A stretch of 64,000 bases of DNA from a virus. The notes under the pieces are model-generated. The model was not told the origin of the DNA. It was given only the letters and a program-made list of their open reading frames with translations, and did not search any database. Positions 1 through 62,033 of this stretch are shown here, piece by piece (position 1 is the stretch's first letter; the number at the start of each line of letters is the position of its first letter). Made by a program: the position numbers and the translations under genes. The DNA is taken from positions 1-64,000 of IMG/VR virus record IMGVR_UViG_3300006931_000005. One strand, given 5' to 3'.

Positions 1-771
1 AACCTTGAACGTCTCGCCATTGCGATGCCAGCCGGTTTCGCGCTTGCTGGTGATGAACCGGAAGGCGAGCTTGGCTTCAGCCAGCGGAACGGAAGCCCCC
101 TTGCTGGTTTCGAGGATCGTTTTTTCGCTCGGCGAACACGCGCCGGTTTCATCCGGGATCAGACTCGCTTTTGCACGCAAGTAAACCTTGGTGATGTGAT
201 GCGGAATCGTCACCAGCTTGTCACCAGCCAGCCAAAGCCGGATCGCGTCAGCCGCTTCAGCTTCCTGCCGGGCTTGCTTGGCCGCAGCCGCCTTGCGTTC
301 ACGGGCCGCAGATGCCGCCGCCTTCGCCTTCAACGCGACCAGATCGGTCTCGCCCGGCACCGCGAAGCGCGTGACGAAACCGAAGTGCTGCGCGAATTCG
401 TTCGCCTCATCGACCAGCCGCGTCAGGCATTGCAGCGCAAAATCCGGGTTGCGGGCACGGGCCGCAGTCAGGGCCGCTTCCTTGATCCGTTCGCGGTACT
501 CGGCCAGATGATCCTTGCCCGGCCCCTTCAAAACGTCCGCGACGGTGAACACCTTGAGATGATGGCAGGCGCTCCGCGTGATGCTGATATGCCGCGCCGT
601 TGAACTGCTGTACCCCTTCGTGGTGAACAGCACCGCGCCAAGGTAATGCCGGGCAATCGGGAAGTGATGGCCGTAAGAGTAGATTGTGTCGCCGTTGAAA
701 TAGAAGCTGCTTCCTTTTGCTTCTGCCCGTGATTTGTTCGCCCAAAGATGGGCTACCTGTTCATTGTTCAT
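1..771 (-). CDS. Early phage hypothetical protein, runs off the left edge (MNNEQVAHLWANKSRAEAKGSSFYFNGDTIYSYGHHFPIARH...)
   Basis: Translated by hand; not in the ORF track because it has no stop in the window. ATG at 771 is preceded by AAAGGAAATCGA, the same leader as the next two genes. Confidence 0.8.
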   Translation of the reverse strand, partial: MNNEQVAHLWANKSRAEAKGSSFYFNGDTIYSYGHHFPIARHYLGAVLFTTKGYSSSTARHISITRSACHHLKVFTVADVLKGPGKDHLAEYRERIKEAALTAARARNPDFALQCLTRLVDEANEFAQHFGFVTRFAVPGETDLVALKAKAAASAARERKAAAAKQARQEAEAADAIRLWLAGDKLVTIPHHITKVYLRAKASLIPDETGACSPSEKTILETSKGASVPLAEAKLAFRFITSKRETGWHRNGETFKV

Positions 772-789
772 TCGATTTCCTTTGTTTTT

Positions 790-850
790 TGAAGCGTAAT
801 TGCTTCAGCCCGGCCACCGGTTTTTACCGGTGCCGGGATGAAACCATCAC
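790..850 (-). ncRNA. Long imperfect intergenic hairpin, possible RNase III-type processing site
   Basis: Minus strand GTGATGGTTTCA-T-CCCGGC-ACCGGT-AAAA-ACCGGT-G-GCCGGG-C-TGAAGCAATTAC; alternative hairpin TGAAGC-N6-GCTTCA. Confidence 0.55.
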
Positions 851-1404
851 GGGCAGGCCGCAGCAATCAGCGTTTCGGCCACGAGCTTTTTGTGCTCCTC
901 GATTGAATACCGCGCATGATCCTCCGCCTCCCCAGCCATGTATTTTTCGCCCTCGTCATCACCCTCAAATCCCCAGCATGAATCCCCTTCGATTGTCCCG
1001 CCGTCCGGGGTTTCAATCGTCGTGGTGTAGCCCAGCCAGTGCCAGTCATTGTTACACCAGCCCCGGCAGTATTCAAAATCGCGCTCGACCGCCTCCGCCG
1101 TGATTTCCTTCACCGTTGGCGTGCGGCCCAGCTTTGCGGCCAGCTTTGCCTTCGCTTCTTCGCCCAGCCCCCAGCCTTCCGCCTTGGCCTTCTTGATCGT
1201 GGCCGGGATGTCATAAAACCGGCTGCTGCTCCGGTCTGAAGTCAGAACACGTTCACCGGCCCGCTTGTCGCGCCGTTCCCAGCCCGTCACAATGCCGTGG
1301 CCATCGTGCTCCTCCCATGGGGCACCCATGAAAGGATCGTGATAGATTGAGATTCTGGCGGTGTAGCCGTCCAGCTCGAATGATTTTGTTTTAATTGCTT
1401 CCAT
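847..1404 (-). CDS. Early phage hypothetical protein (MEAIKTKSFELDG..., DSCWGF motif)
   Basis: ORF 847..1491; start moved to ATG 1404, which follows AAAAAGGAAATCT. Confidence 0.8.
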   Translation of the reverse strand: MEAIKTKSFELDGYTARISIYHDPFMGAPWEEHDGHGIVTGWERRDKRAGERVLTSDRSSSRFYDIPATIKKAKAEGWGLGEEAKAKLAAKLGRTPTVKEITAEAVERDFEYCRGWCNNDWHWLGYTTTIETPDGGTIEGDSCWGFEGDDEGEKYMAGEAEDHARYSIEEHKKLVAETLIAAACP

Positions 1405-1429
1405 AGATTTCCTTTTTGTTCTGGCGAGT

Positions 1430-1486
1430 TGAGTCTCATCAGCAGCCGCAAAACGGCTGGACGGGCTCGCGCCCGTTTCGACTTCA
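1430..1486 (-). ncRNA. Hammerhead ribozyme, type II
   Basis: Minus strand TGAAGTC-GAAA-CGGGC-GCGA-GCCCG-TC^-CAGCCG-TTTTG-CGGCTG-CTGATGA-GACTCA: intact CUGAUGA and GAAA core, GUC cleavage triplet, stems I and III closed, stem II formed by the two ends. Confidence 0.93.
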
Positions 1487-2062
1487 GCCATAAATCACTT
1501 CACCAAGGCAGGCCAGTTGCGCGAAGGCGTCAAAGCTGGTGGCGTCCGACTGGCCCAGCCAGTCGTCCCATCTTTCCCAGTCGGCGGACAGCGGGGGCGG
1601 GGTGCAGCCCTTCGGCCATTTGTCCGTGAACATCAGCGGGAATGCGGCCAGCAGCTTGGCCTTGTCCAGCTCGTAATCCTTGCCCTCCTCGTCGTCGGTG
1701 AACGAGAATTCAAACGCCTTGTAGCGCCAGCCGTGGCAACGGAGCGCGCAACCGTTGGAAGCTTCAGGAAAGTTTTCCATGATGCCGCCGATAATACGCT
1801 CCACCATTTCCAGCGGAATTTCGACGGCCAGCTTCAGCGCACCACTTTTAGCGGCTGGCGCATCATTCACGGGCTCCCATGTCACGCTGAAAACCCATTT
1901 TGCATTTGCCACGGTAGCGGCTTGATGGAAGCAATGCTCAACATGAAGATCACCCGCACCACCCTCGCTGAATTTCAAAAGGGCTTCATCCAATGTGGTA
2001 GCAAAGCAGGTACGAAGCACGCGGACTGAATCCGCCAGTTTGTAATGGTATTTTTCACTCAT
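1484..2062 (-). CDS. Early phage hypothetical protein (C-terminal DA..FDAFAQLACLGEVIYG motif)
   Basis: 192-aa ORF with AAAGGAAATCT-ATG leader. Confidence 0.85.
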   Translation of the reverse strand: MSEKYHYKLADSVRVLRTCFATTLDEALLKFSEGGAGDLHVEHCFHQAATVANAKWVFSVTWEPVNDAPAAKSGALKLAVEIPLEMVERIIGGIMENFPEASNGCALRCHGWRYKAFEFSFTDDEEGKDYELDKAKLLAAFPLMFTDKWPKGCTPPPLSADWERWDDWLGQSDATSFDAFAQLACLGEVIYG

Positions 2063-2074
2063 AGATTTCCTTTG

Positions 2075-2340
2075 TAGTTTTGACTCACCTTGTTGCCAGA
2101 CTTGTCACTGGACGGGTTGAGACATTCAACGCCGTGTAGGTTTAAAACTTGGCTTTTCAATCGGTTGCCGGGCAAGGCGTTTAATCCTCATCCATGTCCC
2201 CGTCGTTCTGACGGGTTGACCGCCCGGTTGCGTCACCTGACCTGATACCGGGATCAAACTGCTTACCAGTTGCACCGTTTCTACGCTCGGCAGCGGGCTG
2301 AATCTTTTTCGTCCCGGCCATCGGGACTAACCTTACGGTG
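2075..2340 (-). ncRNA. Structured 5' leader or ncRNA of the early operon
   Basis: No ORF in about 270 nt; many hairpins (GTCCCG/CGGGAC, CACCGT/ACGGTG, AACTG/CAGTT, CCCGGT/ACCGGG, CCCGTC/GACGGG, GTTGA/TCAAC). Confidence 0.5.
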
Positions 2341-2345
2341 ATACC

Positions 2346-2373
2346 AATTTAACAGATCGTGTTAAACTGTCAA
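2346..2373 (-). promoter_or_regulatory. Sigma70-type early promoter overlapped by an inverted repeat
   Basis: TTGACA-N16-TAAATT with TGn extension; TTTAACA-N5-TGTTAAA at 2348-2366. Confidence 0.7.
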
Positions 2374-2380
2374 CACCTAT

Positions 2381-2398
2381 TTTGACAAAGTTGTCAAA
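2381..2398. promoter_or_regulatory. Palindromic operator TTGACA-N4-TGTCAA, copy 1
   Basis: TTTGACAAAGTTGTCAAA; same core at 4600-4615. Confidence 0.6.
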
Positions 2399-2587
2399 GC
2401 TGTTTGAGGCAATAGGGACGGGCTGGAAGCGTGCCCGCAGTCATCCCGGTGAAATTATCGGCGCGATTTTTTGAGGTAGGCGTCAGGCCATTCGCCCCAC
2501 TTTTTGAAAAACGCCCGTTCGTCCGCTTTGGTAGTCGGATCATTGGCCACCTTCAGGCGGATGCGTTGTTTGCAAGTAAGGCCGGAT

Positions 2588-3139
2588 TTATTGGTCGAGA
2601 GCGGTGTTTTCATTCGAGGCTGGCGAAGGGGTTGCGGGTTGCGAAATGCCGTCAACGATTTGAGCGGCGGTCACGTTGTTACCCTTGTTGAGCTGATCGC
2701 AGAAAGCTTTTTCGGTGGCTGATCCGGCTGACCATGTGAGTGATTCTTTGGGCGGTTTTGGCGCTGCTTTTTTCTTGGCTTTCCGCACCTTGGCCTGCGA
2801 TGCCCGCCAGCTTTCGCGGAGGGCTTCACGATCCTGCACACCCCGGTAATACGAGTAGCTGACGATCATCCAGCCCCAGTCGCGGCCAGCGTCCAGCGGG
2901 ATCAGCCGCCGCCCGTCGTGCTCTTTGTTCTGGGATCGCGGATCAGGCTTGCACAGTTGCTCGATGCCGAAACGGATTTTTTCCAGCGGTACATTTGCAC
3001 GCCGGGCGATGGCCTCCTGCGTCATGTTCACGGCTCCGGTTCTGTCTGCCATTTTGAGCAAGTCCTCGAACACATGGCGCACCTCGTAATTTTCAGCCAG
3101 TGAGGAGTCGAAAATCGCCGTGAAGATTTTTGCGTACAT
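2588..3139 (-). CDS. Replication-initiator-like protein, N-terminal domain only (paralog 1)
   Basis: YAKIF..IFDSSL...RHVFEDLLK...PDPRS...GRRL...RDWGW aligns with 5432..6193; C-terminal domain absent. Confidence 0.8.
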   Translation of the reverse strand: MYAKIFTAIFDSSLAENYEVRHVFEDLLKMADRTGAVNMTQEAIARRANVPLEKIRFGIEQLCKPDPRSQNKEHDGRRLIPLDAGRDWGWMIVSYSYYRGVQDREALRESWRASQAKVRKAKKKAAPKPPKESLTWSAGSATEKAFCDQLNKGNNVTAAQIVDGISQPATPSPASNENTALDQ

Positions 3140-3159
3140 AAGGCCGACATTACAGGCGA

Positions 3160-3345
3160 TTGTCGTGGGTGTCCATGACAATTTATGATGTCAAAAATGT
3201 CTGTCAAAAGTCCACAGAAGCAGATGCAGAGGCATTGCGTAGCATGACACGGTTTGACGGTGGCAGGATCGTCAGCCGGATCAGTGGTGAAGTCCATGAA
3301 TGGGACAGTGAAGATTTGAGTGGACGGATCGGACGTGTCAGCGCA
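3160..3345. repeat. Iteron-like array of TGTCA/TGACA/GTCCA/TGGAC pentamers with CAGAAGCAGATGCAGAGGCA
   Basis: Dense short direct and inverted repeats immediately upstream of paralog 1. Confidence 0.5.
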
Positions 3346-3358
3346 CATTTCTCGTTAA

Positions 3359-3697
3359 ATGGACGCTGAATTGGCCTACACTCGCGCTCGGTCATCCGAT
3401 GCCCGGCCTTTGATCGACGATTTACTGCTTGTCCATGATCCTCGGCGACTTGCGATGATGCTGGGGATCAAGCGGGCGGCACTTTCATGGAAGAAACACC
3501 CCGTCCCAGTGGCTCGTGCTGCGTTAATGCTTCACCTTATGACGTTTGCACCGGGTCAGAAGGTCTCGCTGTTCGACATTCTTACGGGGTGCCGGTATAA
3601 GATCGGATCATCTTGTGGCATGGCCAAGCCCCAGATCGGCAGGCCGGACGTTACATTTAATGCCACAGATGTTGCAACCCCTTGCAAATCAGGGTAA
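3359..3697 (+). CDS. Hypothetical protein, possibly HTH-like
   Basis: 112-aa ORF; RRLAMMLGIKRAALSW is weakly HTH-like. Confidence 0.4.
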   Translation: MDAELAYTRARSSDARPLIDDLLLVHDPRRLAMMLGIKRAALSWKKHPVPVARAALMLHLMTFAPGQKVSLFDILTGCRYKIGSSCGMAKPQIGRPDVTFNATDVATPCKSG

Positions 3698-3779
3698 ACG
3701 CCTTGTGGTCGGCAGTGAATATATGAACGATTGTGCATCTTTAATTCAAATCGGGACACTGGCTGGACGGCAGGCCGGG

Positions 3780-3980
3780 AGGGGGATTTTGGGGGTGCCG
3801 GGGGTCGTCAGATTTCAACGTATAGGGTGCTGCGGTCTATGTCGTCCCTTCAAAAAAAACGCAACGATCCCACCAGCCAGCGCGATTCACCTTGCACCCT
3901 CTGCGTCGTCAGGGTGTGCAACGTGCAGAAAAACGGAAAAGGGCTGGGCCGTCGAATTTCCGAAAAACTGAAAATTTTTC
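3780..3980. other. Possible packaging or genome-terminus region
   Basis: No convincing gene; G-runs (GGGGGTGCCGGGGGT) followed by A/T tracts, near the strand switch. Confidence 0.3.
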
Positions 3981-4131
3981 TCGCGCCTGCGGCGATGATC
4001 GCGGAGAGTGCGGTCATGCTTCAGCGCGTACCACGAAACCGGGTGCCTTACCACCAGCTCGATACGCACGTCCACATGAAGCCCCTGCTCAACTCGAAGG
4101 CCACCATCCGAAAAACGTCGGTCAAGAAACC

Positions 4132-4599
4132 ATGAGTCAGGATGTCATCGGCGGAATCTCTGTCATCCAGCGCAGCCGCTTCTGGTCGCAAGCGCCGATC
4201 TACCGTGTCTCCCACATCCTGCACCACGCGGACGGTCGCCGGGGCACGATCTGCCTGTGCATGACCGAGGGGCCGACGGAGCCGCCCGGTGTGGCGGAGA
4301 TCGCGGGCGAACCGGTCTGGCAGTTCATCAAGGGCTTGCCCGGCCATGGCTGGATCGCGTGCCATCCGAGCGTCCGGCAGTTCGTGACCGTCGAGGGCGT
4401 GCAGCGTGATCTGTTTCACAATGCCTACGACTGGCAGGTTCAGTACGTCGAGATGCGGTGGCAGGAGCCGGACATCGGCCAGCAGCCATGCCAGATCGAG
4501 CGGTACGATGTGCTGCTGACGCTGAACAACCCGGAGTTGTCGGACGCGGAGCGGGCCGCGAAGTTCGCCGAATTCAGGCAGCACGGCGTCATTTACTGA
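4132..4599 (+). CDS. Hypothetical protein
   Basis: ATG 4132 (MSQDVIGG...) within ORF 3892..4599; genome-typical codon usage. Confidence 0.7.
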   Translation: MSQDVIGGISVIQRSRFWSQAPIYRVSHILHHADGRRGTICLCMTEGPTEPPGVAEIAGEPVWQFIKGLPGHGWIACHPSVRQFVTVEGVQRDLFHNAYDWQVQYVEMRWQEPDIGQQPCQIERYDVLLTLNNPELSDAERAAKFAEFRQHGVIY

Positions 4600-4627
4600 T
4601 TGACAAATCTGTCAAACATGGCAGGGT
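4600..4627 (+). promoter_or_regulatory. Palindromic operator copy 2, overlapping a -35 box
   Basis: TTGACAAATCTGTCAA; weak -10 CAGGGT; ATG 6 nt downstream. Confidence 0.55.
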
Positions 4628-4633
4628 CGGTGA

Positions 4634-4885
4634 ATGATACGAACCGTATTTGAATCCGTCCTTGGCGTGGTCATTTTAATTCTGGCCCTGAACATCTACC
4701 TTGAAAAGCGGCATCATGTGCAGCCCGGCCCGCATTGGCACGTCGAATTGGACTGCCGGTATCATACCCATTCTTGGGTGGCGGACGCGGAGCCGACGTA
4801 TGACCAGCAGGCGCATCTCCTGCGGTTCAGCGTTGATGGCGTGCCCACGCTCGTCCAAGGCGATGTCGTGATTACCTACAAATAA
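4634..4885 (+). CDS. Small membrane-anchored protein
   Basis: N-terminal hydrophobic helix. Confidence 0.65.
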   Translation: MIRTVFESVLGVVILILALNIYLEKRHHVQPGPHWHVELDCRYHTHSWVADAEPTYDQQAHLLRFSVDGVPTLVQGDVVITYK

Positions 4886-4886
4886 C

Positions 4887-5132
4887 ATGAAACTTTTCCT
4901 CACCCCCGGCTGGAACGGGACATACGAGCCGACGACCCTGCTGATGATTCTCATCCTGCTAGTCCCGGCCTGCACCCTCCTGTTTATTGTGCTCCTGTGG
5001 CTCGACCAGAACAACAAGGTGCCATGGCTCTGCTGCCCGCTGTTTCACCGCAGGCACCGTGTCCTCTGGCACTCGTCCGACGGCGACTTCATCAAGTGCT
5101 CGCGCTGCGGGCGCGTGGAAAACTGCCTGTGA
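4887..5132 (+). CDS. Small membrane protein with Cys/His zinc motif
   Basis: TM helix followed by CPLFH...CSRCG. Confidence 0.65.
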   Translation: MKLFLTPGWNGTYEPTTLLMILILLVPACTLLFIVLLWLDQNNKVPWLCCPLFHRRHRVLWHSSDGDFIKCSRCGRVENCL

Positions 5133-5133
5133 T

Positions 5134-5307
5134 ATGGCCAAGCGCAAGCCCTGCCGAAAATCCGGGAAAATCAAATTCCCGTCGCACGAGGCGGCGGCGA
5201 TCCGGGCGGGCGAAATCCTCGCCAAGCAGCCCGGTGGCGCGAGCTTCCTGCGGACGTACCTCTGCGGCTTCTGCGGCAAATGGCACCTGACTTCCCAGCC
5301 CGCGTAA
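5134..5307 (+). CDS. Small zinc-finger protein
   Basis: PC..SGKIKF...RTYLCGFCGKWHLTS motif. Confidence 0.75.
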   Translation: MAKRKPCRKSGKIKFPSHEAAAIRAGEILAKQPGGASFLRTYLCGFCGKWHLTSQPA

Positions 5308-5310
5308 TAC

Positions 5311-5390
5311 CAGAATCAGATACAACTTCAGAATCAGATACAGACTCAAGGTGCTAACGCACCATGTTACGGTGTGTTACAAGGTAACAT
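5311..5390. repeat. Origin/iteron-like repeats
   Basis: CAGAATCAGATACA x2 (5311, 5329); GTTAC x2 and GTAAC (5366-5388). Confidence 0.6.
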
Positions 5391-5431
5391 TTTAATTGAC
5401 AACCCGGACAACCAGCCCCATTATCAAAACC

Positions 5432-6193
5432 ATGAGCCAGCTATACGCCCGCGTCTTTCTCCAGATTCTTGATTCATCCATCTCCGAGGATTACACCATG
5501 CGCCACATCTTCGAGGACTTGCTGAAGCTGTGCGATCACCGTACCGGCGTGGTGGACATGACGCGGCAGGCGTTGAGCCGACGGCTGAACATCCCGCCCG
5601 ACGTGCTGGACGCCCAGCTTCAAAAGCTGGAGTCGCCCGATCCGAACAGCCGGGACGACGAGTTCGAGGGCCGTCGCATCGAGCGCCTTGACGAGCACCG
5701 CGACTGGGGCTGGCGGATTCTGAACTGGGCCAAGTACGATTCGATCCGGGTGAAGGCCGACCTGTCCATCCGGGTCGCCCGGCACCGCGAGAAAAAGGCG
5801 GCGGAGAATCCGTCGGAGAAATTCAAGAAGCCGACCGTCGAGGAGGTCAAGCTCTACGCTTCCGAGAAGGGGATGCCGATGTCGGAGGCGGAAAAGTTTT
5901 TCCATTACTACGAGGCGAACGGGTGGCGCGTCGGCAAGAACCCGATGAAGAACTGGCACTCGGCGGTCGCCAACTGGAAAAAGAATTTCGAGGAGCGCAA
6001 GTACGGCGGCGGATTGCCGCCCGCCGACAAGCCGGTGCGCGATCTGGATGTCTGGCATCTCGGCAGCGGCAAGTACAATCTCACCAACGGGCCGAAGCGC
6101 GAGCATTTTCCAAATCAGGCGGCGTTCGATTCGCATCTGCGGATGTGGCAATCGTGGCAGGCCAACCGGCTCCGCCAGAAGGAGGCGAAATAA
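5432..6193 (+). CDS. Phage replication initiator / replisome organiser (paralog 2, full length)
   Basis: N-domain as paralog 1, plus C-terminal FKKPTVEEV...AEKFFHYYEANGWRVGKNPMKNWHSAVANW; lies upstream of dnaB; TTGACA-N17-CATTAT promoter at 5396-5424. Confidence 0.85.
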   Translation: MSQLYARVFLQILDSSISEDYTMRHIFEDLLKLCDHRTGVVDMTRQALSRRLNIPPDVLDAQLQKLESPDPNSRDDEFEGRRIERLDEHRDWGWRILNWAKYDSIRVKADLSIRVARHREKKAAENPSEKFKKPTVEEVKLYASEKGMPMSEAEKFFHYYEANGWRVGKNPMKNWHSAVANWKKNFEERKYGGGLPPADKPVRDLDVWHLGSGKYNLTNGPKREHFPNQAAFDSHLRMWQSWQANRLRQKEAK

Positions 6194-6194
6194 A

Positions 6195-6404
6195 ATGCCC
6201 GAAGAAACGACCAAGGAAAAAATGTTGAGCTGGGCTGACAAGCTTTACTGCGATGCGAAATTTGTCCGGTCGCAGCTCGTGCAACTCGCTCCGCAGTACC
6301 GGCAGAAGGACGAATACAACCAAGAAGGTTTGTATCTCGAAAATATCAAGGTAACGCTACGCCTGCGCCGTGTGGTTTTACAACTGGCGGAACGATTAAA
6401 ATGA
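6195..6404 (+). CDS. Hypothetical protein
   Basis: Fills the gap between rep and dnaB, with ATGA overlap. Confidence 0.6.
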   Translation: MPEETTKEKMLSWADKLYCDAKFVRSQLVQLAPQYRQKDEYNQEGLYLENIKVTLRLRRVVLQLAERLK

Positions 6405-7882
6405 TCGACTCCGTATCAGAGCACGCGGGAGAGCCAGACTTCCGTGGATCACGTCGGCCAAAGACGTTGCAGGAGCGCGGTGCGGCCACGCTCGACCGGG
6501 TGCCGCCGCATGAGCTTCAGATGGAGATGGGCGTGCTGGGCTGCATCATGCTGTCCCCGCATGAATGCCTCAACGAGTGCATCACCAAGTTCAAAGAATT
6601 CGGCAAGGAGGTTTTTTACGACCTGCGCCATCAGGCGATCTACGAAACGATCCTGATCTTGTACGAGGCCCGGTTGCCCGTCGAACTGATCTCGGTGCAG
6701 CAGAATTTGAAAGACCGCCAGTTGCTCGAACAGGTCGGCGGCATCGCTTACATCTCGCAGATTCAGGACAGCGTTCCGAGCGCGGCCAACCTTGGCTACT
6801 ACATGGAGGTCATGCTGGAGAAGTTCATGCTGCGCCGGATGATCGAGACCTGCACGGGCGTCGTTGGCCGCATCTACCAGTACGAGGGCGAAGTGGATCA
6901 ACTGCTCGACGAGGTGGAAAAGGAAGTCCTGAAGGTCGGTGATATGCGGCGAAACACGGACGAGATGCCGACGGACAAACAGCTCGTCAACGAGGCGATC
7001 ACGCAGATCGAAACTTATTTCAACAAGAAGGGCGAGCTCACCGGGCTGGCCACCGGCTTCCCAGACCTTGACCGGATGACCGACGGGCTCGTTGAGGGCT
7101 TCTACGTCATCGCCGGTCGCCCGTCCACTGGGAAAACTTCGCTGGCGATGAACATCGCCGAGCACGTCGTCATTGAATTGAAGCAGCACGTCGGCGTGTT
7201 CAGCCTTGAGATGTCGGCGCAATCGCTGATGCTCCGCATGATGTGCAGCGTCAGCCGCGTGAACCTGCGGATGATCCGGGATGGCTTCATGTCCGAGGCG
7301 GATTTCCCGAAGCTGATGAACGCGGCGGGCAAGCTGGCGAAAGAGCTGCTGCACATCGACGCCACAGCCGGGCTCTCGATCATGCAGCTCCGCTCCCGCG
7401 CCCGCCGCATGAAGATGCGCTTTGGTATCAAGCTGCTCATCGTCGATTACCTTCAGCTCTTGAATTCCAGCAACCGCAAGGTCAAGAGCCGTCAGGAGGA
7501 GATCGCGGACATCAGCGCCGGGCTGAAGGCGCTCTCGAAGGAATTGCACATCCCGATCATCGCGCTGGCCCAGATGTCCCGCGATTTCGAGAAGAACAAC
7601 ACGGGCAAGAAAAAGCGGAAGCCGCGCATGAGCGATCTGCGCGAGTCCGGTGCCATCGAGCAGGACGCCGATCTAGTGGCGTTCCTTTTCAATCCGAACG
7701 CGACGGACGACGAGGATGAGATGGAAGCGCAGCAGGAAGCCGACGGCCTCGCCATCGACCTGCTGATCGCCAAGCAGCGTAACGGCCCGACTGGGACGGT
7801 GCATCTCACCTTCCTGAAACCGTACACGCGCTTCGAGAGCGCGGCAAAATTTAGCAACGACGATATTCCCGACGGTAAATAA
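6401..7882 (+). CDS. dnaB: Replicative DNA helicase
   Basis: PPH N-terminus, Walker A GRPSTGKT, FSLEM, VDYLQL, SDLRESGAIEQDAD, KQRNGPTG. Confidence 0.97.
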   Translation: MIDSVSEHAGEPDFRGSRRPKTLQERGAATLDRVPPHELQMEMGVLGCIMLSPHECLNECITKFKEFGKEVFYDLRHQAIYETILILYEARLPVELISVQQNLKDRQLLEQVGGIAYISQIQDSVPSAANLGYYMEVMLEKFMLRRMIETCTGVVGRIYQYEGEVDQLLDEVEKEVLKVGDMRRNTDEMPTDKQLVNEAITQIETYFNKKGELTGLATGFPDLDRMTDGLVEGFYVIAGRPSTGKTSLAMNIAEHVVIELKQHVGVFSLEMSAQSLMLRMMCSVSRVNLRMIRDGFMSEADFPKLMNAAGKLAKELLHIDATAGLSIMQLRSRARRMKMRFGIKLLIVDYLQLLNSSNRKVKSRQEEIADISAGLKALSKELHIPIIALAQMSRDFEKNNTGKKKRKPRMSDLRESGAIEQDADLVAFLFNPNATDDEDEMEAQQEADGLAIDLLIAKQRNGPTGTVHLTFLKPYTRFESAAKFSNDDIPDGK

Positions 7883-7908
7883 CAAACAACCAAGAAAGAA
7901 AAAATACT

Positions 7909-8385
7909 ATGGCCTCGTTTAACAAAGTAATCCTGATGGGCAACCTGACCCGCGACCCAGAGCTTCGGTACACGCCGAAGGGCATGGCCATCGCCAAGAT
8001 CGGCCTTGCCGTAAACCGTGTGTGGACGAATGAAGCAGGCGAAAAGAAAGAGGAGGTGACGTTCGTGGACGTGGATATGTTCGGACGCACGGCGGAGAAC
8101 GTCGCGCAGTACATGAAGAAAGGTCGGCCCATCATGGTCGAGGGCCGTCTCAAGCTCGATCAGTGGGATGACAAGACGACCGGCGCGAAACGCAGCAAGC
8201 TTGGCGTGGTCGCGGAGACTGTGCAATTTCTCGGCACCGCTCCCGGAGCCGGTGAAGGTGGCGGAGCGCCCGCACCATCGCAGCGCACCCAGCGTCCATC
8301 CGCGCCCCCTGCCGCGCAGGGCGAACTGCCAGTCGAAGGCGACGGCCCGCCTGAAGATGATGACGGTACGAATGTTCCTTTTTAA
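7909..8385 (+). CDS. ssb: Single-stranded DNA-binding protein
   Basis: FNKVILMGNLTRDPELRYT; acidic tail ending VPF. Confidence 0.97.
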   Translation: MASFNKVILMGNLTRDPELRYTPKGMAIAKIGLAVNRVWTNEAGEKKEEVTFVDVDMFGRTAENVAQYMKKGRPIMVEGRLKLDQWDDKTTGAKRSKLGVVAETVQFLGTAPGAGEGGGAPAPSQRTQRPSAPPAAQGELPVEGDGPPEDDDGTNVPF

Positions 8386-9407: not shown

Positions 9408-9800
9408 ATGAGCACAACATTCACTGAATTCGTAACCCTTGAACGCTGCACCTGTGGAAAGTGCGGCGGCGTCTTTGCTTTGAATCAAGACGTGCTGACC
9501 TATGCGCGTGCAAACGCTGGTCATTATCATTGTCCATATTGCGAAACCGAATGGGGTTGGTCTAAATCCGAAGCGCAGAAATTGCGCGAGCAGCTTGAGC
9601 AGACGCAGCGCGAATTGCGCGAGGCGAATTGCCGGGCGATCAATGAGCGGGCAGCGCGTGAATCCGTTGAGAGCGAAAACATAAAGCTTGGTAGAAAACT
9701 TGTCCGTGTTCGCAAGGGTGTATGCCCATGCTGTACCCGCTCGTTTTCAAACCTCAAGCGCCACATGGAAACGAAGCATCCTGAAGTTAGCAAGGCATGA
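9408..9800 (+). CDS. Zinc-finger / coiled-coil protein
   Basis: CGKC, CPYC, C2H2 CPCC...HMETKH. Confidence 0.8.
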   Translation: MSTTFTEFVTLERCTCGKCGGVFALNQDVLTYARANAGHYHCPYCETEWGWSKSEAQKLREQLEQTQRELREANCRAINERAARESVESENIKLGRKLVRVRKGVCPCCTRSFSNLKRHMETKHPEVSKA

Positions 9801-10726
9801 AGCTCCTGATCGTAGATGGCAGCAACATCGTGATGCGTGCCTCGTTCGGTGGAAAGATTGATCCCGCGCAATCCACACCGACAGCCATGGGCATGATCGA
9901 CCGCGCTTACCGCGATCTTGAAGCCACGCATCTCGTGATCGTGTTCGACTGCCCGGATTTTCCGACGTGGCGCAAAAAGCTTTACCCGGAATACAAGGCT
10001 CACCGCGAGACCGACACGCGGCCATGGATCGACGCCGCGCTCCGAGACTGGGATCGCTCGAAGCAATGGATTGAAGTAGCCGCAGGCTTCGAGGCGGACG
10101 ACATCATCGCCACCATCGCCGAACACGCGAAGCAAATGTGCGAAGTCTTGGTGCTCTCCAGCGATTCCGATCTGTTCCAAATTTCCTGCCCGGAAGTTTG
10201 CGTGTGCCGTCCGGTGAATGGTGGCGGAGTATCGGCAATGACGGAGGACATGATCTGCGAGCGGTACGGCATCGGCTACCCGGAGCTCATCGTGGACTTC
10301 AAGGCTCTGACTGGCGAGGACGGCGACAATGTGCCGGGCGTCGAAGGCATCGGAGCGGTCAAAGCCGCGCAGCTTTTGAAAGCCTACGGCACGCTGGAGG
10401 ATGTCATCAAGGCCGGGCAATCGAAGTCATGCAAGGGATCAACCAAGGTGGCGGAGGCCGCTGAAACGGCCCGGCTCGCCCATCGGTTGATCTCTTTGGA
10501 CAAAGCAGCGCCAGTCGTGAACTTGCTGTTGAAGCTTTTTTGTTTGAGCGAAAATTTCAAGCTCGCGCAGGATCAGTATCCAATGACGCTGCCGGAGCAG
10601 CGTGAGTACATTTACACTTTTCAGGAGCGGCTTGGAATTCTTGGCGCGGATCGCAACCCGACGGACGATCAGATTATTATTGCGAAGCTCGACGCCCAAG
10701 CGGTGATTGAGAAAATGAGATTATGA
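9797..10726 (+). CDS. 5'-3' exonuclease / flap endonuclease (Pol I N-domain type)
   Basis: LLIVDGSN, WRKKLYPEYKAHR, FEADDIIAT, SSDSDL, GEDGDNVPGVEGIG. Confidence 0.93.
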   Translation: MKLLIVDGSNIVMRASFGGKIDPAQSTPTAMGMIDRAYRDLEATHLVIVFDCPDFPTWRKKLYPEYKAHRETDTRPWIDAALRDWDRSKQWIEVAAGFEADDIIATIAEHAKQMCEVLVLSSDSDLFQISCPEVCVCRPVNGGGVSAMTEDMICERYGIGYPELIVDFKALTGEDGDNVPGVEGIGAVKAAQLLKAYGTLEDVIKAGQSKSCKGSTKVAEAAETARLAHRLISLDKAAPVVNLLLKLFCLSENFKLAQDQYPMTLPEQREYIYTFQERLGILGADRNPTDDQIIIAKLDAQAVIEKMRL

Positions 10727-15376: not shown

Positions 15377-16464
15377 TTCTCTACGCATCATCTCCTGATG
15401 GGGTCGCCCAGCAGCAGAATTACTACGACCAGCTCCGAATGAACGCGGAGCAGAACAATGCCGCACGCTTCGACGCGGCACAGGCCCGTGCGCTTCAGGC
15501 CACCCTTCAGCAACGTGAATCCGACCGGCGCTCGCAGGATGCCGCCGATACCTCCGCAGAGCAAGCTGACCAGTTCAACCAGCGTCTTGCCTTCGAGGGT
15601 CAGCAAGGTGATCTGAACCGCGCTTCACACGAGAAGGACGTGAACACGCAGTACAGCTCGACGCACGCCGACCGGCAGGATGCGATCAATCAGCGCGATT
15701 TCGAGCAGGCTCAAAAGCTGGCCATGGCTGGTCAGATTCCGCAGACCGAGGAGAAGGTTGCCTCGCTGTATCCGAATTTCAGCAAAGACCAGATCAAAGT
15801 TTTGGCGGCGGCAAGCTCGCAGCACGCCTTCGACCGTTTCGGCACCGCTCTCGATATGTCGATCCGCGCCGGTAATCCGTTGCCGCTTGAAGCCGTCTCC
15901 AAGATCGTCAACCCGGACTCTCCGATGTACAAGGACGCGATTGATTTTCGCACCGAAAAACTCGCGCCGTTCGTCCAGCAGTTCAAGACCGGTGAGGACA
16001 AGGCCCGCAAGGGAAATTTAGCAGCAAAGATTCAGGCTGATACCGAGGCTGCACCGCTTCCGACTTCATTGAGCGCCAATACCCCTATGTGGGCTGGCGG
16101 TTATGCAAATCCTATCAACTGGGGTATTCGGCTCGGCGAGCATTTGTTCCCGGATATTACCCCAGATAATACAATCCAGCCTCGTGGCGACTGGCAGACG
16201 CGGGCTCCGTCGATTGTTTCATCGCTCCGCGCTGGGAATGATCCGGCTGTAACCACAGACGTTACAACTGGAAAATTTGTGAACACGATGCTCAATCCGA
16301 ACGGTGGCCCGCAAGCACCGGAGCCGATTGTTCCGCCGATCCAGCCCGGCCCGGTCGCTCCTGTCCCCGGCGTTCCGACGGTCACAACTCAAGCCCAATT
16401 TGATGCGCTGCCCAGCGGTGCCATTTACATTGGAAAAAACGGTAAGCAATTTCGCAAGCCATGA
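15373..16464 (+). CDS. Internal virion / DNA ejection protein
   Basis: Q-rich N-terminus; C-terminal QFDALPSGAIYIGKNGKQFRKP motif typical of ejection proteins. Confidence 0.7.
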   Translation: MILYASSPDGVAQQQNYYDQLRMNAEQNNAARFDAAQARALQATLQQRESDRRSQDAADTSAEQADQFNQRLAFEGQQGDLNRASHEKDVNTQYSSTHADRQDAINQRDFEQAQKLAMAGQIPQTEEKVASLYPNFSKDQIKVLAAASSQHAFDRFGTALDMSIRAGNPLPLEAVSKIVNPDSPMYKDAIDFRTEKLAPFVQQFKTGEDKARKGNLAAKIQADTEAAPLPTSLSANTPMWAGGYANPINWGIRLGEHLFPDITPDNTIQPRGDWQTRAPSIVSSLRAGNDPAVTTDVTTGKFVNTMLNPNGGPQAPEPIVPPIQPGPVAPVPGVPTVTTQAQFDALPSGAIYIGKNGKQFRKP

Positions 16465-19400
16465 AGCAAGATGATTTTGGCGGCATCGCATTGGACGATC
16501 CACAATCATCTGACGAATTTGGTGGTGTACCGTTGGCACCTTCCACATCGACAGATGAATTCGGTGGGGCACCTTTAACTTCACCGGCTCCGATTCAAGT
16601 CCCGGCGCAGAGCCAGCCGATGCCGGAGCCGATTCCATTCAAAAACCCGGACATCATCGCGCCCGCGCCGGAAGCGCCGTCGATCCCCGGCGTCTTGGCC
16701 CGCAGCGCGGCCAGAAATGTTCTGCCGACCGCAGGATTTATTGCGGCTGCGCCAGTCGGTCGCTTGGCCGGTGCTGCTGCTGGTGCCCGCACTGGCGCTC
16801 TGCTTGGAGCTCTGGTGCCCGGTCTTGGTGAAACTGGCGTCAGTGAGGGCGTTGGCGCAGTGATTGGTGGCCTTATCGGTATGTTCGCCACTGGAACAGC
16901 GGCGGCAACTGCAACGAAAGCACTTCAGACTGGCGCTGCCGATTACGTCGCACCAGATTCTTTCCTTGGAACGAAGTCGGAGCAGGCGGATATGGCGGCA
17001 CATCCCATCGCCAGTGAGCTGGGAAGCCTTGCCGTCATCGGAAAACCGAATCCGTTCAACATCATCCGGGCTGCACGCACCATCGGGTCGGATACCGGAC
17101 GCGCAGCACTCGCCGATCTGTTGAAAACTGGCGCGACCAAGGGCGGCTATCAGGAATGGGCCAAGACTTACTCGCCAGAGGTGCAAAAATCTGCTGTCAA
17201 CGTGCTCAACGTCGCGCAGGCGGGCGGCATCAACGCGGCTTTCAATGTGTACGACCAGATCAAATCTGGAAATTACAGCGCGGGCGACCTTTTACGGTCG
17301 GCGGCGGAGGGCGCTTTGTTCAATGAGCCTTGGATTCACGCAAAAAATCCTGCGACCGACTCGTTTGATTCCGCACTGACACCCGAACAGGCCACGGAAG
17401 CGAATAAAAACCTCCGGGCGTTGAGCCCGTACCCGGAAACCGGGACGCCGACGAACATCTCGAAGGGGATCGTGGCCGTTCCGGTCGGTCAGCGGACGCA
17501 TATCATCCAAGTGAACGGTCAGGACGCCGCCGTTTTGAAGCACGTCGATGGCGCGGACTTTCAGAAGGCGCAGGACGATGCTGGCGCGTCCGGGTGGGAC
17601 GGATATTTTCTTAAAAAAGACCCGGAGAGCGGCAATCCGACGATCTACATCAACATGGATCACCTGAACCGTCAGGATTCCCTGTTCACGCACGAGTCAA
17701 CGCATTTGCTGGAGGCCATGGGGCTCATCAACCAGCAGCAGATGGACGCCGTGAACACGACCTACGGCCAGATCAAGGTCAAGGACGCCGACGGAAATGA
17801 ATTGCCCATCGCTCAAGAGGTGGCGAACCGTTACGCGAAATTTAATCAGGACAACAGCCGACCGGATCAGACGCCGGAAGATTTTCAGCGCGAACTTTTC
17901 GCCAACATCCTGCAACACTGGCATGAAACCGGGACTGCGCCGAAAGACACCTTCATCAAGCGGGCGATTGATTTCATTTCCGGCATTGCCGGGCTCGATA
18001 AATCGGGCGAACAGCACGCGAGAGACTATATCGCTGGCCGTTTTGAGAAGGCACCTGAAGAAGCCGGAGCTCCGGCGACCGCCGATCTTGTTCCGGCTGG
18101 CGCAGCGAGCGCGGCTCCTTTGCCAAATTTGGCATTTGACAAAAATCCTGTTCCGTCGCAGGCTACGGGTGATGTCAGACAAGCCGAAGAACGAGCAGGA
18201 GCCGGAGTACCACCGCCCGCCGAAGGGGTGGAAGCCGGGAGGCCCGCCGTTGGTGCTCCGCCCGCCCGCCCCGGTGCCGAGCCCAACGCCGCCGTCCAGC
18301 AAGCCGCCAATGCCTACAACGAAGCCGTAGGTCTCGGCCCAACGCAGCCGCATTACGTCCCGGTGGACGAGGCCCGTGCCCGCCAGATCGCCGCCGAGTA
18401 CGAGAAGCTTCCGAAAACCGACCAGTCTCCGCAGACCCTTGCGTCCTACGAACAGCTTGGCAAGGAAATCCAGCAGCAGTGGGATTATGCCCGGAACAAA
18501 ATGGGCATCACGTTCGAGGCTTGGACGAAAGAGGGCCAGCCCTACGCGAATTCCCGCGAGATGGTGAAGGATGTCCGGGACAATCATCACCTTTATTTTT
18601 TCACAGGCGGCGATGAGCATCCGCTGCTCAACGTCAAGGACGCTGACGGGCTCACGCTCAATGACAAGCTCCGGGCTGTCCATGACCTGTTCGGTCATGC
18701 GGCGGAAGATTTTCAATTCGGCGCACGCGGCGAGGAAAATGCGTGGATCAAGCACAGCCAGATGTTCACTCCCCTCGCGCAGAAGGCGCTGACGACCGAG
18801 ACCCGTGGCCAAAACTCGTGGGTGAATTACGGGCCGCACAATTACGAGGCGACCGGTGCCCGGAGAAACATCAAGCCGCAGGATCGTCCGTTTGCGGATC
18901 AAAAAGTTGCCCTGCTCCCTGACTGGGTGCATGATTGGAAAGGCCCGTTAAATGAAAACCAAAAAGCACAGTTCAGCGTCCCGAAACAAGCGCCCGATTT
19001 CACCGACCTCCAGTGGTGGAAGCGTGACAAATCCGAACCGGATGCAGGCGCTCGTGAATCTGGCGCTCCAAGAACTATCGCAGGTAATCCCCGCGAGCTC
19101 GCCCCCGGCGAACGCGACGGCAAAGTAACACTCACGCACTGGTCGAACTTCGACCTTCACGGAAAGGCGATTGATCCGAATTTTTACGGCTCCGGTTATG
19201 CCGGTGAGGAAAAAGGCCGTCGGGTTTTCAAAAAGTCTTGGCTGAACCGCAGCTATTTTGGAATGAAGGGCTACGTCAAAGAAGGTGGCCTTGGCCGATT
19301 CAAGCACAGCGTCACGGTGGACGTGAACAAGCTCTACGACCTGAAGAATGATCCCGACCGGCTGGGTGAAAAAGTCGGCGCGATCTCCGACCGGCTGTAT

Positions 19401-22400
19401 CCGAAGGGTGGCACGCAAGCCGATCTCACCGTTTACGAAAATCTCATCAAGAAGGCCGGGTACATCGGATACTACAACACCGATTATGCGGTGGCCGCGC
19501 TGTTCGACAAGGTGCGCGTCCCGGCCCGCGTTTCAATCATTCACTCGGTTGAAAATTTCAAGCCCGCCACACACAAGGACATGACGCCGGAGGAGCTGCT
19601 GACATCGGCGCAACAGGTGCGGATCAAGGCTCCTTCCGGGACTACCGCATTGCGTGTGATCGACTCGAACGGCAACACCGTGATTCATAACCTGTCGAAA
19701 TTCTCGACCAGAAATCCGCTGTTCAACAAGGATGTGGTGCGTGTCAGCCCGGTATCGGTGAAAACCAGTGGCGTGTACAAGAACCATCCGATCCCAGTGA
19801 AAGGGCCAGTGCGCGTCGAGCCGACGGCGATGTTTTCGGTGCCGAAGAAAAAAGAATTTTTAGATGCGGGCGAGGAATCTCGCAATCCAAGACCTAATGC
19901 TACGACATTGCCGACTCCACCGACAGGGGGGCTTAAAGAAATCGGAGATCGTACCGCATCTAAGTTTAATTACGATAAAAACGTGCTGGATGAAAATGGC
20001 GCGATGAAGCGATTTTATCACGGAACAGGAAAATCGGATCAATTAGTAAAATCTGGAGGATTTAGCTATGAAAAAGCCAGCGACGAATCACTGTATGGAA
20101 AAGGATTATATTTCACTGAAAATCCTGAAATTGCTGGAGGAACAGTCGTAGGCGCTGATTTGGTAAAACGCGGATATGCTGGCAGCTCTGGTGCTGTCAT
20201 TCCGGTCAACATCAATGCCAAAAATCTTTTTGATGATTCGGTCGGTATTCCGAAGCAGCAAGCCGAAAAGCTGGTGCTAAAATATATTGATAAAAACGGT
20301 GAAAACGATGTCCAGCTTAACGGCAAGTATGGATCATTCGCCGCCGCAAAACCGGTAATTAAAGCGCGTGAATCAATAGATAATTCGTTTCGAGAATTGA
20401 TTGATGATTTGGCGCAAGAAAAATCAATTCGGGATTTAGTTAAAAAATATGTTCCAGCCGGAAGTTTATCTGGAAGCCAGACCATAAAAGATCGTTTGAG
20501 CTGGGCTTTTGGTCGGCGCAGTATCCATAACTCAATCGCGTCTGAACAGGATAAGTCGGCTGGTGGAATACGGGCTGAATCAACAGGTGATATTAAGCAA
20601 AAAATTTACCAACTCGATGATCTTGAAAAGCAAAGCAATGCTCTTGATCGTCAAATTTCAGAGGCGATGGGGCAGGTTGGTAAGTATTCTGACTTTGTAA
20701 AAAAAGTAATTGAAAATGTTGATGGCCCTGTGAAATACGGCGATCTTACAGATATTTTTTTACAGGACAAAAACGAGGTCAATAATTTTTTAAGAAATTC
20801 TGGATACGATGGGATTACTCATATTGGAGGAACTATCACAGGTAGCGATCCACATCGCGTTGTAATTGTTTTCGATCCGAAGCAGATTCGCTTTGCGATT
20901 GGCGCAGATCAGCCTTTCTTTTCAGTTCCAAAAAATTCATCTCAAGAGCTGAAAAAATTTCCGCGCACAGCCATCGACATTCTGATGGACGAATCGGTAA
21001 TCAATCCGGTGCGTCCGAAGCAGGTTGCCGAATTCGATCTCATGGGCGATGACGAGGCCGCAGGATCGACCAGCTTCTCCCGCGTGTTCGCGGTTGCCGA
21101 CCACCTTTCCCGCCGATCCGCGCAGCTTGGCGGTGGAGCCCTGCACGAGCTCAACGACACAAACGCCGAGACGCTGGCAAACACTGTGGCGAACGAGGCG
21201 GAGTACGCGATCAACCGCGATCCGAAGGCGATTGGCTGGTACGACCGCGAAATGAAGGCGGCGATGGGCCAGATTTTTAACCGGCACCCGGAGCTGAAGA
21301 AAGATCGCGGCCTGCAATCCGTTTTCAAATCCATTCTGGCGATCACCAACAACGGCCAGAATGTTTTTGCGAATTTCGCGCAGGCGGACAAGCTTTACAC
21401 GGATTGGCGCACGGCGGGCAAGGTGCCGGACGAGGAGAACTGGGGCGGCAAGAGTAAGGGCGCGATCAACGACGGCCTGAAGATGCTCAACCTGCTCATC
21501 GAGAAGCTGGGCACCGCGAATCTGGAAAAGTTTTTGGCCAAGGAATTCAAGGTTGGCGATCTCAAGAGGGCTGGATTCGACATCAGTTCTGAAAACACCG
21601 AGCACATGGCGCACGGCTCGCTGATCTACGGCCCGAAGGTCGGCGGCGGATTCTATCAAAACCTGATCGGCAACCTGAATCCGATCACGATGGATATGTG
21701 GCTCATGCGGACGATCAACCGTATGCGCGGCACGCTCACCGAGCCCAGCCTCACGGCGCTCCCGGATCAGATCGACCGGTTCATCAAGTCGATGAAGAAG
21801 CAGCCGGACAGCGAGGCGATTATCGCGGATGCCAAGCGCGTGAAGCAGCAGATTTTGGACGGCACGCTCGACGTGAACAAGGAGAAGGATGCTCCGGGTG
21901 TGATGCTGACCGCCGCCAAGAATTTGTACGACGATTACCGCAACAGCGGGTTCGTAAAGCGGACGGAGCTCAACCGCAGCTCGAAGCTGATCGCCGAGGA
22001 ATTTTTCGGCATCAACGAAGCGCCGACTTCGGCGTCCGAGCGTGATTTCATCCGCAATGTTTTCGTCCGGGCGCAGGAGAAGTTGAAAGCGAAAAAAATC
22101 GACATCACGAACGCCGACCTGCAAGCCGTTCTGTGGTATCTTGAGAAGGATATTTATGGAAAACTTGGAGCAACCGACCGCCGATCCGCGCCCGCCAGCT
22201 ACTCGGACGCCGCCGCAGCCCTCAACCGAAAACAGCTCGGACTTTTCGATGAAGAACAAGGACGATCAGGCGATCTTCGAGGAGCTGAATCCGCTGGCCC
22301 GGAGATCAATCGCTTCGGTGAAGCTGGCAAGCAGCTTACTGGCGCACAGGCGCTCAAGCGGGTCTCCGTCCAAGAAGCGGAGCCTGTACCGCAGTTCTCG

Positions 22401-61190: not shown

Positions 61191-62033
61191 TTAAAAAATA
61201 CGGTCGATGATTTCAGAGATGTACGCGGCGTTGAGCTTGGCCGGGTCGGTGCCTTCGAGGGCTTCAAGGAGTTGTGCGAAGTACGCCGAATCGACGCCAA
61301 CCAACTGCTCCTGAAGAACGGCGATGTTAAACAGGTCAAGCTCGTTGAGCTGAAGAATGACCTTCAACATCTGACCGGCGTTGATCGTCCAGCCACGGGC
61401 GATGAACTTGCGGAGCCGGATCAGCGAACAGAGCGGATACTTGCTGCCGACGTAGTTCAGCTCCTTCGTCATAATCGACTGGAGCGCGGCCAGCGGCGTG
61501 ACCAGTTCCTCGTCCCACGATTTCCAGTACGATGTGCAGTGAACGAAATCGTAGTTCGCGTGAATCTCCTCCGGCTGGCCGAAGAAGCGCACCACGATTT
61601 GAATCTGGCCGGAGAGCGTGATCGCGTTCGAGGACATGAACACGGGCTCAAACTTCTCGTCCTCCTTCAGCTCTGGAGATTCATCGGAAGCTTCCTCGTC
61701 GCCCATGTAAACGATGTCCGGCGTCGTGCGGATTGAGATGCGCTGCGGGTCTGCGGGAATTCCGCGATCAGGATCGGCAGGAAGTCCGTCCCAGATCGTG
61801 ACCTTGCCCGGAAAAAACTTGGCGTAGTATTCCGCCACGGCCAGACAGGTCGAGCGGTCGCGGAAATACAGGTCAAAGTCATTCGGCTTTTCGTTCTGCA
61901 ACAGGCTGACGATGGAGCCGCCCGTGATGATGGTGCCGTCGATGACTTTCTTGCGAAGGTTTTCGTCGGTGATCGAGTTGGCCCAGAGGTTGAATCTCGC
62001 GGCCAGCAGTTTCTTTATTGATTTTAACTTCAT
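61191..62033 (-). CDS. Pol-beta-superfamily nucleotidyltransferase
   Basis: ITGGSIVSLL...PNDFDLYF...NYDFVHC...RLRKFIARGW. Confidence 0.8.
   Translation of the reverse strand: MKLKSIKKLLAARFNLWANSITDENLRKKVIDGTIITGGSIVSLLQNEKPNDFDLYFRDRSTCLAVAEYYAKFFPGKVTIWDGLPADPDRGIPADPQRISIRTTPDIVYMGDEEASDESPELKEDEKFEPVFMSSNAITLSGQIQIVVRFFGQPEEIHANYDFVHCTSYWKSWDEELVTPLAALQSIMTKELNYVGSKYPLCSLIRLRKFIARGWTINAGQMLKVILQLNELDLFNIAVLQEQLVGVDSAYFAQLLEALEGTDPAKLNAAYISEIIDRIF

Follow-up and report, generated by a model that had tools for sequence, protein, structure and literature searches.

The virus record IMGVR_UViG_3300006931_000005 (IMG/VR) contains, in the 64,000-nt window analyzed here (the first 64 kb of the record), two related genes, P0001 and P0002, each preceded by an array of short repeats and a hexamer-periodic purine tract. 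We consider it probable that this region comprises two cognate protein/DNA modules of one origin-binding family. Judged by its sequence, the feature is real and beyond chance, and probably an iteron-type initiator with its origin. The family is undescribed in Pfam, NCBIfam and, for its N-terminal domain, PHROGs. Each module is composed of a winged-helix protein with a long helix, three to five short repeats ~10-13 bp apart, and a (CAGARN)n purine tract. Both modules here lie outside and upstream of their genes, where they adjoin or overlap a predicted promoter. The features are:

2588-3139, minus strand: P0001, the short paralog, 183 aa; winged helix, long helix, basic stretch and short conserved C-terminal motif
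3170-3214, no strand assigned: TGACA/TGGACA-class array, 31-75 bp before the P0001 start codon; minus-strand order TGGAC, TTGACA, TTGACA, TGTCA, TGGACA
3180-3207, minus strand: promoter-like site TTGACA-16-TAAATT inside the array; 10/12 consensus matches, a pattern match only
3215-3232, plus strand: purine hexamer tract CAGAAGCAGATGCAGAGG, one of two such tracts in the 73.7-kb genome; conserved upstream of short-clade genes
5311-5346, plus strand: purine hexamer tract (CAGAnn)n, CAGAATCAGATACA twice and then GACT; homologous tracts precede the arrays in the related loci L001, L002, L006, L014 and L016
5350-5389, no strand assigned: iteron array, GGTGC-TAAC-GCACC followed by TGTTAC (5365), TGTTAC (5375) and GTAACA (5384)
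5396-5424, plus strand: promoter-like site TTGACA-17-CATTAT; 10/12 consensus matches, a pattern match only
5432-6193, plus strand: P0002, the long paralog, 253 aa; winged helix, long helix and C-terminal helical domain
6195-6404, plus strand: open reading frame (ORF) of 69 aa between P0002 and dnaB, function unknown, no family match
6401-7882, plus strand: DnaB-type replicative helicase (Pfam DnaB_C, 1.5e-88; DnaB N-terminal domain, 1.7e-23; phrog_19)

The two paralogs and their flanking DNA

BLASTP aligns P0001 with P0002 at 39% identity over 147 aa (E 3e-35). Confident AlphaFold2 (AF2) models built on family alignments, with predicted local distance difference test (pLDDT) values of 90.4 and 83.3 for the two paralogs, give both proteins a winged helix-turn-helix domain of ~95 aa followed by a single long helix of ~30 aa. 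An earlier note on this DNA had proposed a common N-terminal domain and a C-terminal domain kept by P0002 alone, and both proposals are borne out: the C-terminal domain is folded in the P0002 model (helices 136-192, a hairpin and helix 229-252), whereas the P0001 model closes with a basic stretch and a tail of low confidence. The idea that the pair arose by duplication within this genome was not supported. In the protein collection, the nearest relatives of either paralog are 58-75% identical to it, and the two share only 39%, so the duplication is not recent; on these comparisons, P0001 and P0002 are old paralogs. P0002 has hundreds of metagenomic relatives, the closest of them 72-75% identical. 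The closest relatives of P0001 are 142-183 aa long and 54-70% identical, and this short clade shares the C-terminal motif GE..Y......GD...A..I. Its fuller form, GE(R)RY..A..NGD...AD.IAAEGLP, spans residues ~140-170 of P0001 (columns ~160-200 of alignment A2) and is recognizable also in the distant 160-aa second copy of genome G003 (GETEYLEYLKRGDSDGAQKVLEKYLP). The motif may be a partner-binding peptide.

No Pfam or NCBIfam family was found for either protein. PHROGs gave no match for P0001 and matched P0002 in its C-terminal part only (phrog_15768 at 1e-21, with a weak match to a DnaD-like loader PHROG at 0.007). The same domain of P0002 matches cultured-phage proteins annotated as DUF4373 or "replication initiation protein", in which it stands behind other DNA-binding domains. 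Sequence and profile searches of the PDB returned nothing useful, and VIA-align against a wide PDB set, with the C-terminal domain outside the comparison, returned generic winged-helix matches alone.

Upstream of P0002, the two exact copies of CAGAATCAGATACA begin at 5311 and 5329, 18 bp apart, and the array beyond them opens with a small inverted repeat, GGTGC-TAAC-GCACC, that holds a degenerate CTAACGC copy. The hexamer TGTTAC/GTAACA occurs three times in 5308-5431, against 0.034 expected (Bonferroni 0.013), and the sole cluster of at least three GTTAC in the 73.7-kb genome is the one at 5366-5388. The GTTAC/GTAAC repeats and the duplicated sequence described earlier in front of P0002 are thus confirmed. 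Only 7 nt separate the end of the promoter-like site that follows from the P0002 start codon, and the P0002 mRNA may accordingly be leaderless.

As the earlier note had stated, P0002 sits before dnaB, with the 69-aa ORF in between; in many other loci dnaB likewise comes ~0.3-1.5 kb after the family gene. Modeled together, DnaB, the 69-aa protein and residues 118-253 of P0002 gave a predicted complex with a score of 0.54 (best control 0.00), at least 61% of contacts in agreement between runs and a partner pLDDT of at least 70. This counts as weak support: 51 of the 78 solved complexes came up to that mark, as did 2 of the 108 mismatched pairs, and scores no higher than 0.60 were those of only 5 of these solved complexes and of all 4 mismatches that passed. 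Taken together, P0002, its array and DnaB are most likely a replication-initiation cassette. P0002 would bind the GTTAC array at 5350-5389 and open the neighboring DNA, its C-terminal domain would recruit the phage DnaB encoded two genes downstream, and the protein probably regulates its own promoter.

Upstream of P0001, reading toward the gene, CCTCTGCATCTGCTTCTG stands first and is followed by TGGAC, TTGACA, TTGACA, TGTCA and TGGACA. TGTCA/TGACA occurs five times in 3140-3358, against 0.36 expected (Bonferroni 0.02). The earlier description of this region as TGTCA/GTCCA repeats stands for the former motif; GTCCA, with four copies, is not significant alone. Similarly, an array is present within the interval 3160-3345 once assigned to it, but the conserved array and tract span only ~3170-3232 and do not extend to 3345. 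A strict search for hexamer-periodic purine tracts found exactly two in the 73.7 kb, at 3215-3232 and 5329-5346, one per paralog. An ORF that starts in the tract and diverges from the short gene ("STEAEAEA") occurs in genome G001 and possibly in G000 (3175-3369); it is absent from the other short-clade loci, and we therefore treat the tract as a DNA element.

P0001 would bind the TGACA-class array at 3170-3214, and since this array contains the predicted -35 element of its own gene, P0001 should repress itself. Because the protein lacks the helicase-side domain, its module would be a second, "headless" origin-type site. Such a site might fire with host factors recruited via the conserved C-terminal motif; alternatively, it might control, or act as a barrier to, replication that starts from the P0002 module.

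One geometry recurs in front of both genes, at 3139-3215 (minus strand) for P0001 and 5396-5434 (plus strand) for P0002, and also in front of the short gene of G001 (L090, 7969-8006): a -35 hexamer is separated by 17 nt from a hexamer resembling TAAT or CATTAT, and this by 7 nt from the ATG, with no Shine-Dalgarno sequence. This arrangement suggests leaderless mRNAs for all three. A palindrome, TGACAAAnnTGTCA, has three intergenic copies, two in the window (2382-2397 and 4600-4615) and one outside it (genome position 65070-65083); for TGACA-N4-TGTCA, ~0.07 copies are expected in intergenic DNA. These palindromes look like operators for a dimeric regulator. We considered TGACAAAnnTGTCA as a general P0001 operator, but the relative G001 has no copy, which speaks against a general target of the short clade. 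Divergent from P0001 is a 112-aa ORF (3359-3697, plus strand) with a helix-turn-helix-like stretch (LGIKRAALSWKK); it has no Pfam or PHROG match, and locus L167 has a homolog, 41% identical, in the same divergent position.

Arrays and tracts in related loci

The evidence that ties the repeats to the proteins comes from a survey of 138 distinct related loci (1.01 Mb). These contain 38 arrays of at least three GTTAC/GTAAC, of which 34 lie at -140 to -10 or +350 to +520 from the start of the family gene, where 4.1% are expected (binomial p 5e-43). The repeats are thus enriched over background, both at the two sites in this genome and by their association with the gene in relatives. The internal GTTAC arrays sit between the DNA-binding part and the C-terminal part, that is, in the linker, where they encode VTPCNA-type repeats followed by (CAGAAG)n encoding QKQKQ or EAEAEA. 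A purine tract lies within 90 bp of 16 of 42 GTTAC arrays, against 2% expected.

The composite found inside some genes is the one found upstream of others. In L023, whose protein is 57% identical to P0002, a C-rich box, a CAGAnn tract and GTTAC repeats follow one another within the gene, in the same order as upstream of P0002. Conversely, five P0002 homologs of 49-72% identity (L001, L002, L006, L014 and L016) are preceded by a CAGATACAGACTCA-type tract, three to four CGTTACA ~10 bp apart and TTGACA, and they keep this layout although the flanking DNA is otherwise unrelated. Neither P0001 nor P0002 has an internal array, unlike many relatives. The "linker-like" DNA that had been noted outside both genes is, by this comparison, homologous to the linker-coding origin-type DNA of relatives, which have the same array and tract in-gene encoding a low-complexity linker. 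Since the composite recurs in-gene, the upstream arrays are best read as relocated origin-type elements and not as chance repeats: the origin module would have moved out of the P0002 gene to a plasmid-like position beside the promoter. The C-rich box (e.g., CTCCCCCACACCCCTTATC) precedes the purine tract, upstream or internally, in L002, L006, L014, L016, L019, L023 and L220, and may be a third conserved part of the element.

A similar picture holds for the P0001 class. In eight short-clade genes (G001, L161, L164, L165, L167, L169, L192 and L226), a pyrimidine-strand tract is kept and an array of TTGACA, GAGACA and GGACA repeats precedes the start codon by 30-75 bp; in short-type members further removed, different repeats occupy this position (five copies of GTCAGCAT, or GTGAACA). 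Arrays of the TGTCAA/GGACA class also occur inside long-type genes, at +386 to +468, and 12 of 29 fall in the upstream or internal window (p 1e-9). Indeed, L076 has five GTCAAC repeats followed by (CAGAGG/CAGAAG)n within the gene. Their presence inside long-type genes argues that the P0001 array is the same kind of element and not merely a set of -35 boxes. The motif class also changes with the protein: after helix 3, GTTAC-array proteins have SR[ND]P and TGACA-array proteins SRS[KHR]. The earlier proposal of two initiator-type protein/array pairs with different repeat motifs is upheld. In one family gene (L231), a GTCCA/TGGACA array, a long purine tract and a GTAAC array stand in a row from +330 to +520, which places two motif classes within one module.

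Both types, short and long, are present in three genomes: G000 and G007, which are complete, and G003 (98% complete). G007 has GTAAC repeats and a CAGAAG tract within its long gene, and its short gene is accompanied by a separate tract and a TTGAAA/TTGACA array. In the complete genome G001, the short type is the sole family member and adjoins the single tract; a PHROG scan of ten large G001 ORFs recognized no replication protein.

Known replication systems and competing explanations

By analogy, the system may work like phage λ O with its ori and like SPP1 gp38. λ O has the same general plan, with an N-terminal DNA-binding domain, a linker and a C-terminal domain engaging the helicase side, and the λ ori in gene O has iterons and then a purine-rich tract, the order seen in-gene in many relatives of this family. 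The systems differ in that the iteron cores here are 5-7 bp at ~10-bp spacing, in contrast to the 18-bp palindromes of λ; that the module of this phage lies upstream of the gene and that of λ inside gene O; and that DnaB itself, and not a P-type loader, is encoded by this phage. Homology to λ O, with which the earlier note had compared both genes, was not detected (hhalign probability <1%, no Pfam match), so the likeness is one of architecture only.

SPP1 offers a comparable gene order, organizer, small protein and DnaB helicase (genes 38, 39 and 40), which is found here as P0002 (5432-6193), the 69-aa ORF (6195-6404) and DnaB (6401-7882). In SPP1, too, one origin lies within or next to the organizer gene, and another site with origin-like repeats is found elsewhere in the genome: oriL is inside gene 38, oriR is intergenic, and gp38 bound at oriR has been proposed to stall forks (PMC6316719). 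It uses one protein for both sites, however, whereas here each site has its own paralog and a different motif. The C-terminal domain of the gp38 family is PF09524, which HHpred also assigned to the C-terminal domain of λ O (PMC5509034). PF09524 is present in some members of the family described here, namely 1 of the 56 members of alignment A1 (1.2e-16) and two homologs that carry it in precomputed annotation. In a protein atlas, PF09681 and DnaD clusters are near neighbors, which we take as a lead only.

The position of the arrays is that of the iteron plasmid Reps (P1 RepA, pPS10 RepA, R6K pi), whose iterons lie upstream of rep and adjoin the promoter, an arrangement that implies autoregulation. 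Here, a -35 element (5396) comes after the array at 5350-5389, and the promoter-like site at 3207-3180 falls within the array at 3170-3214. Those Reps have two winged-helix domains, unlike the AF2 models of P0001 and P0002, which show one and a long helix. In plasmid pIGRK, replication is affected in opposite ways by two forms of Rep (PMC6854812), the shorter of which has a regulatory role; there the short form is an in-frame product, unlike P0001, a separate, anciently diverged gene with its own array.

The genome context is consistent with an origin. Genes left of 3139 are transcribed leftward and those from 3359 rightward, so the finding lies at, or just right of, the divergent early region. 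Cumulative GC skew has its minimum at 2.0-2.5 kb and its maximum at ~36 kb, nearly opposite on the circle; by its minimum the region looks like an origin, not like the possible terminus that the two modules had been suggested to flank.

Several results weigh against two cognate origin modules. In hhalign, A1 and A2 reach probabilities of only 0.1-0.3% against λ O, and 0.7% and 9.6%, respectively, against A4, the alignment of the gp38 family; none of these values is significant, and in the comparison with A4 only the first helices align. P0002 itself has no PF09524 match in Pfam. Foldseek against the PDB gave nothing at E ≤ 1e-3 for either model (all E ≥ 0.019), and the structure matches are to the generic winged helix, with best Z scores of 7.5-8.1 tied across many unrelated proteins (CRP, MarR, ORC2, MotA and one plasmid initiator among them). 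The link between motif class and protein signature follows the phylogeny and is thus a correlation, not proof. No short-type gene was found beside a helicase gene among the loci examined. The GC skew is weak and confounded by the coding-strand switch at 3140-3358, and the host is uncultured. Finally, TTGACA is the sigma-70 -35 consensus; since it is also the core of the P0001 repeats, some copies may be promoters, and of the 33 such hexamers in the genome, 8 lie in 2368-5401.

This last point bears on two other explanations. P0001 could be a transcription factor only, an initiator DNA-binding domain acting as a repressor at TGACA sites over the -35 boxes of early promoters, its own included, with no role in replication. 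We regard this as rather unlikely. It would account for the missing C-terminal domain, for the promoter-like -35 hexamers in the array, and for the position of P0001 at the head of the leftward block, facing the helix-turn-helix-like ORF at 3359-3697 (the L167 homolog is placed likewise). P0001-type genes never adjoin a helicase gene and coexist with a long paralog in G000, G003 and G007, and RepR' of pIGRK is a precedent for a Rep variant as negative regulator (PMC6854812). However, the cis module of P0001 is the composite found in the coding sequence of long-type relatives, where an operator role is unlikely; the complete G001 has the short type, with its only tract, as sole family member; and the TGACAAAnnTGTCA palindromes are missing from that genome. 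The repeats might instead be ordinary promoter or regulatory elements that the paralogs do not recognize and to which host factors or other proteins of the phage bind. Both arrays do adjoin promoter-like sites, TTGACA does match the -35 consensus, and the enrichment within the window alone is modest (Bonferroni 0.01-0.02). Nevertheless, arrays that follow the family gene across 138 loci, in-ORF positions included (p 5e-43), and that change motif class with protein clade make this reading very improbable.

Even less probable, in our view, is a role of P0001 with its array as a centromere-like partition site of the TubR or AspA kind. TubR and AspA are winged-helix proteins whose targets are repeat arrays, and Foldseek gave weak matches to both (3m8f for TubR; 5k5q and 4rs8 for AspA; E 0.06-0.13). 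Those folds match no better than generic winged-helix regulators, TubZ or a ParA-type NTPase was not found nearby, and the P0001 module is homologous to arrays inside initiator-type genes. For P0001 as one of two cognate modules, the evidence splits between a second origin and a regulator. The points for a second origin are the composite it shares with the internal arrays, the short-only G001, and the retained C-terminal motif, which could recruit a partner.

More broadly, and with considerable doubt, the two modules may exemplify a widespread phage system. In it, a module of iteron array and (CAGARN)n tract would shift between positions within and upstream of the initiator gene, and phages would time and again combine a full-length initiator with a separate, domain-less paralog whose own array belongs to a different motif class. 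The outcome would be two-protein, two-site origins, either independently fired or with one site acting as a barrier or control site with its own protein, like gp38 as proposed at oriR. What is of interest here is an apparently mobile origin module, a family undescribed in the libraries searched, and a short paralog that recurs with its array beside the long one. Protein clade, iteron motif and tract together define, at the level of sequence, candidate origins in a large set of soil and freshwater phages that are uncultured. The two states of the module, in-gene and upstream, offer a natural experiment on the question of why lambdoid phages keep their origins within initiator genes, and the short paralog that recurs with an array of its own is a candidate second origin or replication-control device.

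Genome and neighboring genes

The full record is 73,724 bp with a 90-bp terminal overlap and a completeness rating of 100%; one DNA sequencing run, a rhizosphere metagenome that is probably the source sample, contains it, and no RNA run with it is listed. At the gathering threshold, Rfam has no family within 1-8000, including a candidate hammerhead ribozyme (1430-1486) and a candidate structured RNA (2075-2340). No family A DNA polymerase was found in the genome. A 5'-3' exonuclease gene (phrog_107) lies at 9797-10726 (plus strand), and an ORF of 3592 aa at 16461-27239 (plus strand). An exonuclease VIII (RecE)-like gene (62030-63097, minus strand; phrog_412, 1.8e-36) belongs to the leftward block. 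Also on the minus strand, at 847-1491, is a 214-aa gene (phrog_11104, function unknown) that is 62% identical to its counterpart in G001. It is the only neighbor common to that genome besides the short paralog, and the pair seems to move as one small module.

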